NCBI RefSeq assembly: GCF_964194155.1
Contig: NC_135888.1
Coordinates: forward strand, 134,850,001 to 134,914,000
Direction: 5' to 3'
Source: Cetorhinus maximus
Taxonomy: Eukaryota
DNA length: 64,000 bases
Positions 24,291 through 64,000 of the stretch are shown in pieces (position 1 is the first letter of the stretch; the number at the start of each line of letters is the position of its first letter). The translations under genes and the position numbers were made by a program. The notes beneath the pieces were generated by a model. It worked only from the letters and a program-made list of their open reading frames with translations. It was not told the origin of the DNA and did no database searches.

Positions 24291-25037
24291 TGCCTCAGAA
24301 ATCTGATGCCCTCCCTTCCACACCAATTCTCCAGCCATGTGATCAATCACTCAATCCTTCTGATCCTATGCTCACTAGCAGGTGGCACTGGAAGTAATGC
24401 CGAGGTTACTGCTTTTGAGGTTCTGCATTTTAATGTATTTCCAAACTTCCTAATATATGCTATCAGGGCCTCATCCCTCTTCTTACCTATACCGTAGACA
24501 GGTCGTGCGGTAGTCCCCCTGAGTCGACCTTCCTTGCTAACTGGTTATCCATTTTGGATACCGATGAAATTGATGGTTCCTCAGAGGAGTGCAAAAAAAG
24601 CCAATTTCGTGGCACAACCGGCCACACAGCTGCACAGCAGGGAAGAAAGAAGAGTGGAAAGGCAATAGTGATAGGGAATTCGTTTGTTAGGGAACAGGCA
24701 GGCGTTTCTGCAGATCAAGACCGGACACCAGGGTGATATGTTGCCTCATTAGTGCCAAGATCAAGGATGTCGCAGAGGAGCTGCAGGACATTCTTCTGGG
24801 AGAGGGTGAAAAGCCTGAGGTTGCGGTCCACAACGGTATAGGTAGGAAGAGAGATGAGGCCCTGATAGCATATATTAGGAAGTTAGGAAATACCTTAAAA
24901 AGCTGAACCTCAAAAGCAGTAACCTCGGCATTACTCCCAGCGCCACGTGCTAGTGAGCATAGGATCAGAAGGATTGAGTGATTGAACACATGGCTGGAGA
25001 ATTGGTGTAGAAGGGAGGGCATCACATTTATGAGGCA
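24291..25037. repeat. Inverted repeat, 205-bp arms (24291-24495 / 24833-25037), 337-bp spacer
   Basis: The left arm is the reverse complement of the right arm at >90% by eye; ORFs 24306..24497(+) and 24687..25112(-) give near-identical peptides. Confidence 0.9.
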
Positions 25038-54055: not shown

Positions 54056-54203
54056 AAAATCTCCCCCGATTGTGCCCTTACATTCCTGGATTCTACAGTA
54101 ATATATGGATATACTGCTGGCAATTGTTGTGCGTTAAAAGGCAAGCCTATACAATCTATTGTGAGAAATTTCAATATTTTACAACACAATCTAGCTCAGA
54201 ACA

Positions 54204-56597
54204 ATGGCGTATGTATTGATGAGCTGGGCGTCCTTCATTTTCCTGCTCTGTGTGTCGGACCTGGTCTCGGAACAGCTTCGCTACTCGATTCCAGAGGAAC
54301 TGGAACGTGGGGCCTTTGTTGGGAATATCGCCGAAGATATGAGGTTAAACGTTTGGGAATTACCGACTCGCAAATTTCGGCTGATTTCAGATGACGTGAA
54401 ACAATACATGGAGGTAAATCTGGAAAATGGTTTCTTAATTGTTAATGAAAGAATCGACAGGGAACAGGTTTGTAGCAAAAGCTCTGCTTGTTCCCTTTCT
54501 TTCCAAGTCGCGCTCAATGATCCTATGGAAATGTACCCCGTCGTAGTAGAGATACTGGATGTAAATGATAATTCACCCAGCTTTCCGAAGAGGGAATTCT
54601 ACTTGCAGATCAATGAATTAAATGCGCCAGGGGCGCGCTTCCCTCTCGAGAGCGCGCGTGATCCGGATGTGGGTACAAACACAATCAGCACTTACCAGAT
54701 CAGCCCAAATGAGCATTTCGATATCAAAGTGCAGACAAGACGGGGTGGGAGCAAAAGTGCCGAGCTGCTATTAAAGAAGTCCTTGGACCGTGAACAACAG
54801 TCAATGTTTACACTTCTGCTGACGGCCATAGACGGTGGGATTCCGCACAGGTCCGGCACAGCTCAGCTTATCATTAATGTAATGGACGGAAATGATAACG
54901 CACCTATATTCGATCATGAAATCTATAGGGCGACTATCGTAGAAAACGTCGCCAATGGCACGTTAGTGATAAAGATTAATGCTGCGGATATGGACGAAGG
55001 TACAAACGCTGAAGTAACATATTCTTTCACCGATCACGTTTCTCAAAGTATTCGCGAGTTGTTCAAATTGGACCCTGTGACTGGAGAGATTAGAATTCAG
55101 GGGGCACTGGATTTTGAAGAAGCAAATGTTTATGAATTTGACGTACAAGCAGTGGAGCATGCTCCACCTGGACTGGCAGCCCATGCAACTGTTGTGGTCG
55201 ATGTCATTGACACGAACGATAATTCCCCTGAGTTACAAGTAACCGTGGTGGCCAGTGCTGTGCGGGAGGATGTTCCTCCGGGGACTGCAATAGCTCTGAT
55301 CAGCGTAACGGACTCCGATTCCGGTGAATATGGAGAAGTTCAGTGTCAAATTCCAGGGAGTATTCCGTTCAAGATCGAAAAATCTTTGAGGAACAACTAT
55401 AAGTTGGTCACCAATGGTATTCTGGATCATGAACTGACCCCACTGTACAACATCTCCGTTTCTGCCTGGGACGGAGGGTCTCCTCCGCTTTCAACTAGTA
55501 AACTCATCTTAGTTTCTGTAACTGATATCAATGACAACACACCAAGTTTTACACAATCCTCATATAACGTGTATCTGATGGAGAATAATACACCTGGTGC
55601 TTCTGTATTTGCTGTTAGTGCATTTGATGCTGATTCGAATCAGAATGGAGACATCTCCTATTCCATCCTTGACCACCAAAAACAAGCTATGTCTTCTTCC
55701 CCTTACGTCTCAATTAACTCCCATAATGGAAACATTTATGCGCTGTGCTCCTTTGACTATGAACAACTGAAACATTTCCAAGTCAAAGTTCAAGCTCACG
55801 ATGCTGGGACTCCTCCACTGAGCAGCACTGCTATTGTCAATTTTGTTATCCTGGATCAAAATGACAACGCACCGGTTATTGTTTCACCCTTAACGTGGAA
55901 CAGTTCGGCATCAGTGGAGATTATGCCCCAGTCAATATATCCAGGATACTTGGTCACTAAGGTAATTGCGACTGATGAAGATTCTGGTCAGAATGCAAGG
56001 CTTTCCTACCAGCTATTGGAAGTCACTGATCCTGGTCTGTTTACCGTTGGGCTTCTTACCGGGGAAATCAGAACAACACGAGCTTTTAGAGACCAAGAGA
56101 TCATTACAAAAAGTTTGGTCCTCTGTGTGAAGGACAATGGACAGCCGAGCCTTTCCAGTACGGCCACTATCTCCTTTAAAATAATGCCCAATGCTACTGA
56201 GAAATCATTTGAACGAACTGATGAACCCAGACGGTGGGAATATTTTTCAGATCTAAACAGTTACCTAATTGTCATTTTAGGATCCACTTCCTTTTTGTTT
56301 CTCATAACCATAATTTGTTTGGTTATCCTGAAGTATAGGCAAAGCAGAAACATTGCTGAAGACTACACCTCTACAATTTGTTGTTACAGTCGCAGGAATT
56401 CGAATGATGCTTTTAATGGGAGACAAGCAGCAAATGAATCTTTAAATTATAGCGGGTCTGTTCAAACTGAAGGTTATCGTTACACCGTGTGTTTATCACC
56501 AGAATCGTCGAAGAGTGACTTTCTGTTTTTAAAGCCCTGTCATCCTACGTTGCCTTTCAATGATGTGAGTGTTCATGACACCAACGCAAGAAATTAA
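54204..56597 (+). CDS. Clustered protocadherin, variable-exon type, 797 aa
   Basis: QLRYSIPEE, six EC repeats, TM, conserved tail; cagaacaATGG. Confidence 0.97.
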   Translation: MAYVLMSWASFIFLLCVSDLVSEQLRYSIPEELERGAFVGNIAEDMRLNVWELPTRKFRLISDDVKQYMEVNLENGFLIVNERIDREQVCSKSSACSLSFQVALNDPMEMYPVVVEILDVNDNSPSFPKREFYLQINELNAPGARFPLESARDPDVGTNTISTYQISPNEHFDIKVQTRRGGSKSAELLLKKSLDREQQSMFTLLLTAIDGGIPHRSGTAQLIINVMDGNDNAPIFDHEIYRATIVENVANGTLVIKINAADMDEGTNAEVTYSFTDHVSQSIRELFKLDPVTGEIRIQGALDFEEANVYEFDVQAVEHAPPGLAAHATVVVDVIDTNDNSPELQVTVVASAVREDVPPGTAIALISVTDSDSGEYGEVQCQIPGSIPFKIEKSLRNNYKLVTNGILDHELTPLYNISVSAWDGGSPPLSTSKLILVSVTDINDNTPSFTQSSYNVYLMENNTPGASVFAVSAFDADSNQNGDISYSILDHQKQAMSSSPYVSINSHNGNIYALCSFDYEQLKHFQVKVQAHDAGTPPLSSTAIVNFVILDQNDNAPVIVSPLTWNSSASVEIMPQSIYPGYLVTKVIATDEDSGQNARLSYQLLEVTDPGLFTVGLLTGEIRTTRAFRDQEIITKSLVLCVKDNGQPSLSSTATISFKIMPNATEKSFERTDEPRRWEYFSDLNSYLIVILGSTSFLFLITIICLVILKYRQSRNIAEDYTSTICCYSRRNSNDAFNGRQAANESLNYSGSVQTEGYRYTVCLSPESSKSDFLFLKPCHPTLPFNDVSVHDTNARN

Positions 56598-58060: not shown

Positions 58061-60122
58061 CAAACATCATGAAAAACAAGGGAAAAATGGAAAAACCACA
58101 CGCTCCCCTCCTAGCCTAACGTCACCCTGACTTGAAACCAAGTGAAAGATGCCACCCTAAACCAGATGCTATGGAACTCTCGTCAACATGCCCCCTACCC
58201 CCGACACTTGTTCCTGCATAAGCCAAGTCTCACTGTACTCCGTCTTTCACATGAGGGTTTCCATTTAAACTCTCCAAGAACTTGCTTTCGAATTTTCCCC
58301 CAAACCGACATTTTTGCTCAGATGCTTTCCACAGGGGTCCACTCCCAGGGTTTTGAACTCTTCTGATATTCTTCTCCCCTAGGTCAGCGCATCCAGCTTT
58401 CTTCCACGCACTCTCTTTCACCGATCCAGCCATCATCAGTACAAGACTGCTTCACATTCCCATGGAAAAGTTGTGACAGGCCTTCGGTCATCTCTTTGGA
58501 CCTTCTGGCCTCTCACTTTAAATCTGCTTCCTGCACTTTCTTCCTTTAAACTTGAAGCGTGGAACTTTCCTCTATTCTTCACTCTTAACTTCACTTAACG
58601 GGACCTTTCCCAGGTTCCTGTCCTTCCTTTGACTAGAAGGTCTTCCTGAGACTTCCTCCTGTTTCTTTCTCACTCCTTGTCCGTAGGTCCTTTTTTCTTT
58701 AGTTTGGGATTTGCTATCTGTCTGTTTTCATGCCCTTCCTGTTCTGGCACATTCTTCCAACTGCACTCACACTGCTGCTTCCTTCTGTGCGTGTCATGGG
58801 AGGGGGCGGTGGGGGGTGGGGGGAAGGTGGGGGCGGCGGTCTCCCTCTCTGAACCCCTGTTGCACATTTTTTCCTATTCTTGTGTTTGCTTTAATTTCTG
58901 CCCAAGAGTCGTAAAACACATTAGAAAAGCAGGTACACAAACAGGTTTAGACCTGCTGTGTCCCTCAAAAATGAAACTAGATCCCAGGTTTCACCTTATA
59001 TCTCACAAATAGAAAAATATATGAATTAAACTTAAACTTAAAGATATAACTTATTCCTAACACCCAAATGCACATATAATTTACTTAAACAATCCCTAAT
59101 CCCTAACACCCAACACTTTGAAAGAAAGAAAGCTTCACAACAGTCAATGTTTCTTTACAATGGCATTACATCCACCTCACACAAACTTAACACCACAAAC
59201 CTCTAACAATAGCTTATTACATATAATGCAAATAAATTTTACATTCCTTTCACAATTATAATTATGTCGTACAACTACAAAAATTTAAGCGAAACAAAGT
59301 CAATCAATGTAATAAGATTTGTAGGCTTTGTACATCATAGCATTATCATAACTCATCTCTTAAGATTTCCCCCCCTCTTATTCCGAGTCTTTAACTCAGC
59401 AAACAATGCTTCATTTAAGTCTACACCCAAATCGTGCTTTTCGTTGGCTTTAGGTGTAATTCCAACTTCATGCTCATTTTACAAATTCAGATCTGATATA
59501 TTCTCATTTTGATTTAGCAAAGTCAAAATGGCATTTCCCGCATGAATGTATCATTCCTTCTCTGGCCAGAATCTCTTTTCGCCGTTTCAAGGGTGTTGTT
59601 GAGATGCTTTTTTATGTCACACAAAGGCATTTCATACTCTTGCATGGATTGATCTTCAAACTTTTCCTGAGCTTGTTGTTTCTCACAGCCCCATTTCCAA
59701 CAGGCCTTTTCCACTTCTCTTTGAGCATGTCAATTATGTTCTCCCTGTGGAGTTTCATAGTTCGTTCCAACCCTTCAACTCTTTTACATGATCAAAGGAC
59801 TATATCATTCCACTCCTTTACCGGTTTTGCACGGTGTTTTGCAAACTGTCTGGATTCCAACAGCTGTATATTTTATATTAATACCGGCAAGAATTTGTAA
59901 ATCAGTGTCTCTGGTCATTGACCTGGAAGAGTCATTTTGCAATTTCAGTCCTTTCTGTTGGCAATTATTAATTTTCACTTCTGCAGGCATTTTAGTTGCT
60001 TTCATATTGTCCATTCCTGAGATTCGTGCATCAGTAGTTTTACACAGATCAGTTCTTTTCTCAATTGGACCACAACTCAACAAATAATTTTTATTCACAG
60101 GAGCAACTTTGGATCTGTGACG

Positions 60123-60560
60123 CTCCATCCCATACATCTTCCCCTTCATCTTCTCAAGTTTGCAGTGAAGTTTTAGATGACAAAGTTCTAACAGTTCGCT
60201 AGTCTTGATTTTTAGTTCTGCATTCAACCAATTATTTTGATTTACCAACAATTCTTTTTCTTGTTCAAGGCATTTCCCCTGATGTTTCATAGCAACTTCT
60301 GTTGCTTGAAGTTCATCAAGTTTTAACTGAAGACTGAGCTTTGTTAAATTTGCTTCTACAAGTTTATCATTTAGATATATCAAGTCCTCAGTCAAGTGTT
60401 CTACTTTCTGTGACTGATTTTCAATTGTTTTCACCAATTCACTTCTTTCATTAGAAAACCCTTGTTTCGTACATGCAAGTTGGTTTTCTATGTTAATCAG
60501 GTTTTCCTTCAATTGTTTGTTATCAGGATTAAGAGTTTCATTTTGGCCACAATACTTTTC
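60123..60560 (-). other. TPR: Captured intronless segment of the nucleoporin TPR N-terminal coiled coil
   Basis: [71 protein letters not shown] aligns without gaps to recalled vertebrate TPR [71 protein letters not shown]. Confidence 0.85.
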
Positions 60561-61321
60561 TGAAGTTGGATAAGATCAGTATGACCAACTGCCTGCTGCA
60601 CTACAGTGATTGCCACATTACTATCTCCTATAGCCAGATCATTACTCAGAATAACATCTACCCCTCCAAAAGGCGATTTAGGAATAATTCTCACTGTAAC
60701 AATTCCATTTGAAAAGTGACTTTGTAAGTTGACCCGACACAAAGAAACAGGTTCATAAATTCCATTAATACCCTTTAGTAATATTTTTCCCTTCATAAAA
60801 CTATCCTGAACAAAAATTGTATCATTGGCCACCATCAATAATTGTTCTGCCCCAGTATCTCAAAATTTCAATCTGTTTACTTATTTTAGTGCAGGAGTAA
60901 GGGAACAGTTATCTCTTTGAGACAAAACATCCAGAACCTCTCATTGCCTGATTTCCTTCACCAGTAATCAAATAAAACTTCTCTGGACTACCTTGAACAA
61001 TGTTCCCCTTTCCTGTATGTACGAAGGAAAACGTTTCACTTGTACCACTGCTACAGTTTTAACAACCATTTTCTTTTCTGATGCAACCTTTCCAGAGGAT
61101 TCCTTTGGTATTCCTGCTACTGTAATATGTCTACCACTTAATTGTCAGCAATCTGCCCGAACATGTCCCACCTTGTTACAATGGAAACAGTTAGGCTTCT
61201 GAATATCACTTCCACTCTCAGCACCTTCTTTTGTGGTCTAAGAAGAGATTTCCTGAGAATGCACAGCTGTCCCTTCTATTCTCTGGCTCTGTGCCTTCCT
61301 TTTACCTTCCCATCTTCTATC

Positions 61322-62525
61322 CCTGGTTCAAACATGGACAAAGGAGCTGAAATCCCGAGGTGAGGTGAGAGTGACTGCCCTTGACATCAAGGCAGCATTT
61401 GATCGAGTGTGGCATCAAGGAGCCTTAGCAAAACTGGAGTCAATGGGAATCAGGGGGAAAGCTCTCCAGTGGTTGGAGTCATACCTAGCACAAAGGAAGA
61501 TGTTTGTGGTTGCAAGAGGTCAGTCATCTCAGTTCCAGGACATCACTGCAGGAGTTCCTCAAGGTAGTGTCCTAGGCCCAAACATCTTCAGCTGCTTCAT
61601 CAATGACCTTCCTTCCATCTTATGGTCAGAAGTGGGGATGTTCACAGGTAATTGCACAATGTTCAGCACCATTCATGACCCCTCAGATACTGAAGCAGTC
61701 CATGTCCAAATGCAACAAGACCTGGGCAATATCCAGGCTTGGGCTGACAAGTGGCAAGTAACATTAGCGCCATACAAGTGTTAGGCAATGACCATCTCCA
61801 ACAAGAGAGAACCTAACCATCGCCCCTTGATGTTCAATGGCATTACCATCACTGAATCCCCCAATATCAACCTCTTGGGAGTTACCATTGACTAGAAACT
61901 GAGCTGGTCTAGCCATTTAACTATTGTGGTTACAAGAGCAGGTCAGAGGTTCGGAATTGTGCGATGAGTAACTTTCCTCCTGACTCCCCAAAGCCTGTCC
62001 ATGATTTACAAGGCACGTCAGGAGTGTGATTAAATACTCCCCAATTGCCTGGACGAGTGCAGCTCCCACAACACCGTAGAAGCTGGACGCCTTCCAGGAC
62101 AAAGCAGTCAGCTTGATTGGCACCACATCCACAAAAATTCACTCCTTGCGCCACTGACACACTGTAGCAGCAGTGCCTACCATCTACAAGGTGCACTGCA
62201 GGAATTCACCAAGGCTCCTTAGGCAGCATTTTCCAACCCCACGAGCACTACCGCCTAGAAGGACAAGGGCAGCAGAAAGATGGGAACACCACCACCTGGA
62301 AGTTCCCCTCCAAGTAACTCACATCCCTGACATGGAAATATATCACTGTTCCTTCACTGTCACTGGATCAAAACTCTGGAACTCCCTTTCTAACAGCACT
62401 GTGGGTGCACTTACACCACATGGACTTCAGCGGTTCAAGAAGGCAGCTCACCACCTTATCAAGTGCAACTAGGGAAGGGCAATATATGCTGGCCCAGCCA
62501 GCGAAGTCTGCATCCCGATAATGAA
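61322..62525 (+). mobile_element. LINE family A inserted in the Gypsy gag
   Basis: ORF 61365..61784 ALDIKAAFDRVWH..GVPQGSVLGP..FINDL; 3' tail present. Confidence 0.92.
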
Positions 62526-62989
62526 ACAAAATTCTTCTCAGGTTTATTGGGATGATGGAAAAAGGGTTTAGATTGATGGACCAGCTAATAACGGCCTGCC
62601 ACCTCCGCTGCCTGTCTAGTTGTTTTAACCCTCTGCTCTTCATCATAGGTTGTAACTATAGGAGGAAGTAAATCTTTAAATTCTTCCAAGATAATTATTT
62701 CCCTAAGAGTTTCATACTTTGCCTCGACCTGAAATTCCCTTATCCAACGGCAAAATTACTTTTCTTACCCTCTTAAGCTCAATATATGTCTGCCTAGGCT
62801 GTTTCCTTGCATTCCTAAATTTCTGCCTCTATGCATATATAACTCAGCCGTACTCAGAATAGCCTTTTTTGCTGCATCATGATCCACAGAAGCCCCTTCT
62901 GACAGCGATGCATAAACCTCACGAGCTCTACCTACCAACCAACTCTGTAAAAGTGATGTCCAGATTTCTTTTGGCTACTTCATTAGCTT

Positions 62990-63315
62990 AGCAATGGTTT
63001 AGTGGTATTGTTGCTGGACCTGTAATACAGAGACCCCGGGTAATGCTTTAGGGACCCGAGTTCAAATCCTGCCACAGCAGAGCTCAATAAAAATCTGGAG
63101 TTAAAAGCCCAATGATGACCATAAAACCATTGCCGATTGTTGTAAAGACTCATCTGGTTCACTAATGTCCTTTAGGGAAGCAGATCTGCTGTCCATGGCT
63201 GGCTTGGCCTACATGTGACTCCAGACCCAAAGCAATGTGGTTGACTCTTAATTGCCCTCTGAACAAGGGGAATTTGGGATGAACAATAAATGCTTGCCTC
63301 GTCAGCCACCTCTTC
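62990..63315 (+). mobile_element. tRNA-derived SINE inserted in the Gypsy gag
   Basis: Head tggtttagtggta..gagttcaaatcc; body catctggttcactaatgtcctttaggg; family-A-like tail. Confidence 0.85.
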
Positions 63316-64000
63316 AAATGCGATAAAGAATGCCTATACACACCTTTCCTCAAACTTTGGGAGAGCTTGCACAGACTTAAACATCTCACCACTGGGCGTT
63401 GGGTTTGAGGTTTTCTCATCATCAGAACCTTCCTCAGCATCTTAGGTCTCCTTTTTAACTTCCAGCCTTCTAAGCTGGTGTTCCATTTCTTGTTGCTTGT
63501 CTCTTGCCTGAACTTTCAGTTCCAGCTTCCTAAATGCACATTCTTTGTCTGTTTCAACCCTTTATCTTTCTTTTTTTTGCATCCAATTCAATTTTTTGAG
63601 TTCATTTTCATGTTCAACTTGCTTCATTCGCAACTGGAATTTAGCCAATTGAACTGGTTCACCCACTGGAGAACGTGCTCTCTATTATATCCTTTCCTGT
63701 TTCATATGCTGTGTTATTATCCCAACTATGTCTGCTTTATTCGCCCTTTTGCATAATTCTAACTCCAGTTTATCCACCAATTCCATTAGCTTTCTCTTGG
63801 CTAATTTCTGTAAATCAGCCATGGTTACACTTTGCATCTGTAAAAATGCCTCAGCAACCTCCAGGGGCATTTCGAATTCCAACCCATATTACAGACCTCA
63901 CCGCAACTCAAATTCCCATGTCCAGTACCTCTGTACCTCCACGTACTCGTTTTAAGCATTCACAGACCCCGCCAATGTTCAAGGATTTCCACCCCCAACT

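Follow-up and report, generated by a model that had tools for sequence, protein, structure and literature searches.

The window, the whole 64,000-nt stretch of DNA analysed here, contains a decayed LTR retrotransposon that belongs to a non-autonomous, Gmr1-type family of ~6-kb elements. In this family intron-less host mRNA, from TPR and CEP152, stands in place of internal ORFs as it does in LTR-mediated retrocopies. The family is a non-autonomous derivative of Gmr1 rather than a canonical member of that clade. We regard the architecture of the element as firm and its function as inferred.

Setting and parts of the element

The window is occupied by a protocadherin-type cluster with five repeated exon-sized blocks, in which a cadherin-like frame of 800 codons lies at 54195-56597. 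The retrotransposon is antisense to this frame and lies ~1.5 kb past its end. The gag, CCHC knuckle, protease and TPR coil that the original prediction had read from the minus strand were all located in that order. The 5′ LTR and PBS lie just past the window end, at the window-equivalent of 64084-65402 (L031:84-1402). The N-terminal part of gag (63391..63870, minus strand; start set by eye from the frame of sister copy L063) is interrupted by stops and frameshifts, and the capsid/SCAN part (62573..63390, minus strand, mapped on sister copy L069) is broken by a private insertion. Pfam recognizes SCAN (PF02023) at E 1e-8 in both L069 and a further sister copy, L065. Two later insertions are present in the gag of the window copy: a repeat at 62993..63303 (no strand assigned), visible as a coverage gap in 39 sisters, and a LINE fragment at 61323..62530 on the plus strand, recognized by its RT motifs, which we take to be of CR1/L2 type. 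Partial copies of the repeat occur at other sites in the window, and it is without counterpart in sister elements.

The nucleocapsid and its linker (60933..61322, minus strand) hold the CCHC knuckle at 61189-61148 (zf-CCHC E 0.0014 in L069), and the aspartic protease (60629..60932, minus strand) has its DTGA at 60859-60848 and ends at NDLA (RVP E 0.017 in L069). The homologous protease region of autonomous Gmr1 copies sits between CCHC and integrase (IN). Behind the protease of the window copy, on the same strand, are two pieces of captured TPR: the end of the 5′UTR with exon 1 (aa 1-~33) at 60510..60628, in frame with the protease in most sisters, and aa 104-~238, from exons 3-7 spliced together, at 60126..60509, which is predicted to form a parallel coiled coil. 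They are followed, still on the minus strand, by a spacer (59786..60125) that shares this frame in sisters and carries a private 8-nt deletion near 59851; a CEP152-derived coiled coil (59512..59785; ~aa 920-1010 of ray CEP152), frameshifted in the window copy; the end of the polyprotein frame with its stop codon (59353..59511), homologous to the end of the CEP152-bearing element L169; and the 3′ LTR (58133..59108), truncated at its far end and 76.6% identical to the 5′ LTR over 992 nt. Pieces related to the spacer occur among Scyliorhinus torazame hypothetical proteins. The window copy is truncated at both outer ends, and its PBS and purine tract are decayed. A purine run near 59370 falls where the reading frame closes and is separated by ~260 nt from the 3′ LTR downstream of it (start 59108).

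Capture of spliced TPR mRNA

A frame of 256 codons at 60575-59805 is free of stops in the window copy. Every protein database match to its coil is TPR (64/64; the best, from whale shark, at 60% identity and E 4e-31), as had been expected of the top hit, and Pfam PF25481 matches the window coil at E 1.6e-11. The coil had been read as TPR ~aa 83-235; the identity stands, and the capture proved larger, taking in the 5′UTR, aa 1-33 and aa 104-238. We found the host TPR gene on contig C18 and mapped its exons 1-13, with GT donors at all 13 exons and AG acceptors at exons 2-13. Aligned with the host TPR mRNA, the window insert is 77% identical over 317 gap-free nt. This alignment crosses three exon junctions, 3/4 (window position 60486), 4/5 (60389) and 5/6 (60285), at which the host gene has introns of 2.3, 1.3 and 7.5 kb respectively; sister copies reach across junction 6/7 as well. 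Because it is gap-free over host exon junctions, the TPR insert came from spliced mRNA, as originally proposed.

The second TPR match, 5′UTR plus exon 1, starts directly behind the protease at 60628, and TPR aa ~34-103 are deleted in the window family. In the basal copies L100 and L127, the last Ala-Gly codons of the protease share a 5-nt match with the TPR 5′UTR, an overlap at the 5′ switch that would fit capture by template switching. A generic coiled coil is ruled out by the DNA-level match to host exons together with the 64 TPR protein matches, and a lone TPR retrocopy in a dead element by the same junction recurring in dozens of dispersed copies, leaving these two readings with next to no probability between them.

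A family with a single open frame

A search of the 4.0-Gb genome at the DNA level gave 1,267 candidates, and one with the tail alone as query gave 629, figures that count candidates and not copies. All those scored matched (40/40 in each search), at 80-87% identity in the first search with the window itself set aside. We compared 39 sister loci of 10 kb each. The TPR block is present in 39/39, and gag, protease, tail and ~1.3-kb LTRs are common to most. The original prediction of a multi-copy element with the same protease and integrase thus holds for all but the integrase: IN, RT and RNase H (RH) are absent from the family, and the ~6-kb sister elements leave no room for them. The predicted paired LTRs were found, with TG...CA ends and a short target-site duplication, and are 78-87% identical in full-length sisters. 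Nine copies have both ends called; the duplication is an exact 4 bp in 3, matches at 3/4 bases in 4 and at 5 bp in 1, and the remaining copy has a miscalled start. The PBS-like motif, presumably of tRNA-Pro type, is the same in sisters and autonomous relatives, and a purine tract precedes the 3′ LTR. A SCAN-type capsid C-terminal domain is present, as expected of the Gmr1 clade; the origin of the SCAN domain has been traced to a Gmr1-like gag (PMC3424704).

A search with a recombinant protease as bait (7,601 candidates, 150 of them scored) led to autonomous relatives. These relatives have the order PR-IN-RT-RH described for Gmr1 (PMC3587641), with integrase upstream of RT, which the family itself lacks. 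At the DNA level the gag of these relatives and that of the family are 71-77% identical, and the LTR end and PBS motif are common to both. The original assignment to the Gmr1 type is supported. Complete Gmr1 relatives are the likely helpers of the family. In one copy, L045, the TPR cassette follows a protease of autonomous type (86-91% DNA identity), a sequence arrangement which suggests that family and autonomous RNAs met within one particle.

Sister copy L069 retains a natural stop-free frame of 669 codons with SCAN, CCHC, weak RVP and TPR matches in that order, the intact frame that had been predicted except that IN is absent. Across copies, none of the 837 codon columns from capsid to frame end is a majority stop (0/837), whereas the two alternative frames have 58 and 101 such columns. 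The column that follows is a stop in 28/34 copies. The protease-TPR junction is in frame in 24/39 copies, the other 15 having small or copy-specific offsets, and the TPR-tail junction in 25/39. The one-base offset noted originally at the protease-TPR junction, at ~60560, exists, but it lies near 60543 and is private to the window copy. A single frame stayed open while the family replicated.

All examined copies are old. The full length of the element is represented in contigs of a second organism at a depth far above single copy, and some pieces at single-copy depth are ~92-96% alike, although none spans the whole stretch. This suggests that the family, and perhaps the window insertion too, is older than the split from that organism.

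A CEP152-derived tail

The sequence downstream of the TPR coil had been read as a weak integrase remnant. It gave no Pfam family in any of its frames (3/3), whereas a true Gmr1 integrase used as a control gives rve and H2C2; tblastn of the tail found no match in 19 protease-matched loci, most of them IN-bearing, or in 12 longer autonomous-type loci. A word-based protein search of the tail was likewise empty, as were a search of the protein database with the gag-protease query and sequence searches of the PDB. Matches to the tail in the Atlas were generic coils only (JAKMIP at 0.91; MYO5B for lineage C, described below) and were not accepted.

A profile built from 14 natural tails matched 11 proteins. 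Six of these are CEP152-like, 2 of them falling in clusters named CEP152; another 3 are named as hypothetical proteins of Scyliorhinus torazame, and the remaining 2 are element-like pieces without a name. Compared with ray CEP152, the tail profile scored 95.9% probability. A host CEP152 exon matches 21/40 family copies, and its reversed sequence, 10 shuffled sequences and 10 other coil windows gave no matches. Among dispersed CEP152 matches, all of those fetched (16/16) carry host exon sequence, in several cases with exons spliced together, and 9/16 of the loci have gag or protease. One such CEP152-bearing element, L160, ends with an RNase H C-terminus as judged by comparing motifs with autonomous relatives. 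The window tail alone gave no significant CEP152 match, and when the tail was compared by blastn with the DNA of host CEP152 there was no match either; the assignment is made at the protein level, via sister copies and intermediate elements. Since the match of L169 to the tail profile extends all the way to the end, the family would most simply have arisen by recombination between one lineage with TPR and another with CEP152. The TPR frame does run on without stops from 60575 to 59805, as the original prediction had it, but what lies downstream is CEP152-derived and not integrase. The proposed ancestral PR-TPR-IN polyprotein is not supported, with host pieces replacing IN-RT-RH.

In-frame trimming in related lineages

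A further 51 TPR-bearing loci (11 + 40) were compared. In basal copies TPR extends to aa ~460; more of it is gone in group B, and the window's own family, A, keeps aa 1-33 and 104-238. When 88 copies are placed in a tree with the host gene as root, A (40/40) and C (16/16) each form one clade nested among the B copies, and A has the shortest tips. After gaps split by the aligner had been merged, 11/12 deletion lengths shared by at least two copies are divisible by three (42 and 21 among them), compared with 48/151 private small indels; the exception, of 197 nt in 2 copies, is out of frame. The TPR deletions ignore multiples of the heptad.

Lineage C is a different gypsy family, with short LTRs and another gag. 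Its elements have the TPR cassette in the same trimmed form, preceded by a third host coil. A protease was not found in this lineage, and it has what we take, from its motifs, to be an integrase-like C-terminal tip. The source of the third coil is a 911-codon host exon on contig C27 (75-89% DNA identity), which Pfam did not name and which we presume to be UACA; its four large shared deletions are all in frame. All three captured host genes encode long coils, and they were reached by following one chain of matches rather than by an unbiased survey.

Selection on the polyprotein

We estimated omega from shared versus private variants among A copies, with CpG masked and transitions and transversions kept apart; first values of ~0.3 became weaker or non-significant with this masking and stratification. 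Within family A, omega is 0.21 for capsid (p 5e-6), 0.10 for protease (p 7e-5), 0.50 for nucleocapsid/linker (p 0.10), 0.27 for the CEP152-like part (p 0.025) and 0.68 for the spacer, which is not significant and near neutral. TPR looks neutral, with omega 1.03 over 33 shared variants and no residue-level constraint detectable. The original expectation of dN/dS below 1 on the insert, which fails within the family, holds when element-derived TPR changes are pooled across lineages (0.56-0.58, p 0.02-0.03). The pooled signal comes chiefly from lineage C (0.31-0.36); the A stem (0.71-0.74) and B1 (0.67-0.95) are not significant. Changes to proline in TPR are fixed in 0/92 cases and private in 47/1,123 (p 0.044), and the commonest residue in family A is the host residue at 120/173 TPR columns, rising to 78-80% over aa 141-215. 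Purifying selection is thus strong on gag and protease, and constraint on TPR is weak. From the omega and frame data, gag, protease and the open frame were needed, whereas the host-derived residues were under loose constraint.

A TPR omega of about 1 is what would be expected if a chance capture had simply hitch-hiked in successful gag-protease masters, its insert under no selection, and the LTR-mediated retrocopies of PMC5131818 can indeed re-amplify as non-autonomous elements. Such a neutral passenger is nevertheless very improbable given the 837 columns free of majority stops, the 11/12 shared deletions in frame and the four in-frame deletions in the third host exon.

Role of the captured coils

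On balance, and by a modest preference, we read the captured coils as a putative filler of generic, dimerising kind, attached to a Gag-protease polyprotein whose element depended on helpers. Spliced TPR mRNA would have been captured by template switching at the 5-nt match between protease end and TPR 5′UTR, the insert then trimmed serially in frame, and recombination with a CEP152-carrying sister lineage would have given the window family. The element may make its own Gag-protease, borrow RT and IN from autonomous Gmr1 elements and be co-packaged with their particles. The long parallel coil would replace the Pol domains as a putative soluble dimerising tail, with selection probably acting on frame and helix and not on TPR-specific surfaces.

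The kept TPR coil is predicted to dimerise. Modelled as a homodimer, the natural PR-TPR stretch scores 0.50, compared with 0.00 for the best control, and forms a parallel coil, with runs agreeing in at least 98% of contacts and pLDDT of at least 72. The dimer-score mark is reached by 21/30 solved pairs and 0/23 single chains, and in eukaryotes by 17/29 and 0/30. The model, which may reflect memory of or likeness to solved coils, has coil-coil contacts only and no confident protease-protease contact, and protease pLDDT is low in the PR-TPR model. When that model was used in a fold search, nothing matched at E 0.001, and foamy virus protease came second at E 0.84. Dimerisation of the protease cannot explain the coils in general, because lineage C has no detected protease.

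The host pieces might instead be stuffer RNA in an element that needs one long frame ending near its 3′ LTR, for example for escape from nonsense-mediated decay or for translation-linked packaging, with A-rich coil mRNAs being easily captured and trimmed. The frame is kept far more strongly than the residues, with TPR neutral within the family and the spacer nearly so; deletions disregard the heptad, and the host TPR coding sequence past exon 1 is 37-39% A. An omega of 0.27 in the CEP152-like part and of 0.31-0.36 for TPR in lineage C, together with the lack of fixed prolines, points to some protein-level constraint, and we consider selection on the frame alone unlikely, if a serious contender.

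A role in host targeting would require pairing of the TPR coil with TPR of the host and of the CEP152 coil with partners at the centrosome. Particles would thereby be directed to the pore basket or the centrosome of germ-line cells, or the retention of unspliced RNA by TPR would be weakened. The prevalence of host residues, above all over aa 141-215, and the keeping of the TPR cassette by two gypsy lineages are in its favour, as is a TPR leucine zipper described as beginning at aa 78 (bioRxiv 10.64898/2026.10.08.757499). That preprint places ZBD1 of human TPR at aa 29-88, ZBD2 at aa 386-481 and the NPC-binding domain at aa 450-606; a second preprint gives the ZC3HC1 contact as aa 40-60 and ring insertion as aa 390-660. 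By these human limits ZBD1 is deleted from the family and ZBD2 and the NPC-binding domain are absent, so that it has neither ZC3HC1-binding domain. Lineages have moreover trimmed the cassette repeatedly and filled the same slot with coils of three unrelated genes whose products have different locations. Docking at the pore, which the original prediction had suggested, is weakly supported at best because the mapped sites are deleted or absent, and TPR omega within the family is 1.03; we judge host targeting or decoy action, for instance by pairing with the first coil of host TPR, improbable.

Returning to coils as a dimerising filler, a broader claim would be that sharks host a previously undescribed class of parasitic LTR elements that swap Pol for host coils (TPR, CEP152, UACA-like) and gain a replication advantage from a long parallel coil on Gag or Gag-protease. 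Such coils would have been taken up, shortened in frame, combined with one another and passed from one gypsy lineage to another. The advantage could then be protease dimerising, co-assembly with helper particles or steering to the pore or centrosome. We hold this claim tentatively, at a little under an even chance.

Comparison with known systems

Capture of mRNA by LTR elements is known, and we found no description of an amplified, frame-keeping, coiled-coil-collecting radiation. A literature search over titles and abstract starts turned up no retrotransposon with TPR or CEP152. Most mRNAs known to have been captured by LTR elements are accidents of low copy number, whereas here the captures became the body plan of large families. 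Many deletions left them translatable, so that they form a natural experiment in the polyprotein requirements of a helper-dependent retrotransposon, and they offer a testable model for Pol-sized tails on Gag-protease parasites. Exon shuffling among three host genes occurs inside the elements, and a gene model in a shark assembly that resembles TPR, CEP152 or UACA can be a copy of such an element.

Acutely transforming retroviruses carry host mRNA in frame with gag in place of pol and depend on helpers, and in the TPR-MET fusion the N-terminal coil of TPR dimerises the fused enzyme. The putative use of the coil here parallels TPR as a dimeriser in such oncogenic fusions. The shark family differs from both in being Ty3/gypsy, without env or a kinase, and amplified in the germ line, and its captured part has no known enzymatic activity.

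Among Gmr1-clade elements (PMC3587641, PMC3424704), the complete PR-IN-RT-RH relatives in this genome share with the family the SCAN-type capsid, CCHC, protease, LTR end and PBS, whereas in the family host coils replace the missing IN, RT and RNase H. LTR elements of bdelloid rotifers, as described in PMC5408684, likewise carry extra coding modules swapped between distant retroelement types. Those modules are separate ORF3s in otherwise complete elements and are mostly enzymes or env-like, whereas the shark host mRNA pieces sit inside the main frame of pol-less elements. Maize Bs1, in the account of PMC5131818, also combines parts of three host genes that are not linked, some of them in frame, with switch points common to all copies. 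Only 1-5 copies of Bs1 exist, however, and of the three pieces one is out of frame; the shark elements are numerous, and all identified pieces are in frame and are long coiled coils.

Parallels are also found in the LTR-mediated retrocopies of metazoans, for which partial mRNA capture, multi-gene chimeras and secondary copying have been described (Tan et al. 2016, PMC5131818). In these as in the shark family, partial spliced mRNA replaces internal ORFs. A short shared sequence marks the switch point of the retrocopies, and the 5-nt match at the shark 5′ switch is a candidate counterpart. The retrocopies of that study are individual young copies with few secondary duplications. The shark captures, by comparison, founded families of hundreds to thousands of candidate copies, are in frame with a gag-protease under selection, were trimmed often and are present in two gypsy lineages.

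Captured host coiled coils in other elements

Among the Gmr1-type elements of the same genome, those at loci L157-L172 carry spliced CEP152 mRNA after the protease linker and constitute a separate deletion series of their own; in L160 and L165 the CEP152 piece reaches the C-terminal exons of CEP152. Another gypsy lineage, C, has its TPR cassette fused in frame behind a coiled coil from a third host gene (L098, L134, L135, L138 and L194-L198). This coil, putatively UACA-like, derives from a host exon at L199:6482-9214 on the minus strand; there are 3,346 candidates at the DNA level and 10,795 at the protein level.

Junctions of the TPR cassette and element tails

The TPR cassette in locus L045 (L045:4671-4969) is fused to an autonomous-type protease, and L186 is a natural deletion derivative in which the RNase H end is attached to the protease linker. 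The sequence that follows TPR differs in the group B elements (L093:5320-5900, L099 and L095), whose tail terminates in an RNase H-like tip. In the window copy, a segment of approximately 250 nt (59109-59352) lies between the stop codon and the 3′ LTR; its beginning is common to B-type and CEP152-type elements, and the segment may be what remains of an earlier LTR boundary.

Genomic surroundings and annotated proteins

The window holds five protocadherin-like exon blocks (6900-56600) spaced 10.7-12.7 kb apart, and the element lies antisense to them, approximately 1.5 kb past the fifth. Separately, an inverted repeat at 24291-25037 (205 nt, 94% complementary, arms separated by 337 nt) looks like a small DNA-transposon derivative.

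Three Scyliorhinus torazame 'hypothetical proteins', P0067 (GCB64700.1), P0068 (GCB84592.1) and P0071 (GCB66358.1), match the element tail. Because of these matches, and because P0068 appears to contain the TPR-tail junction, all three are probably gene models built on copies of the element.
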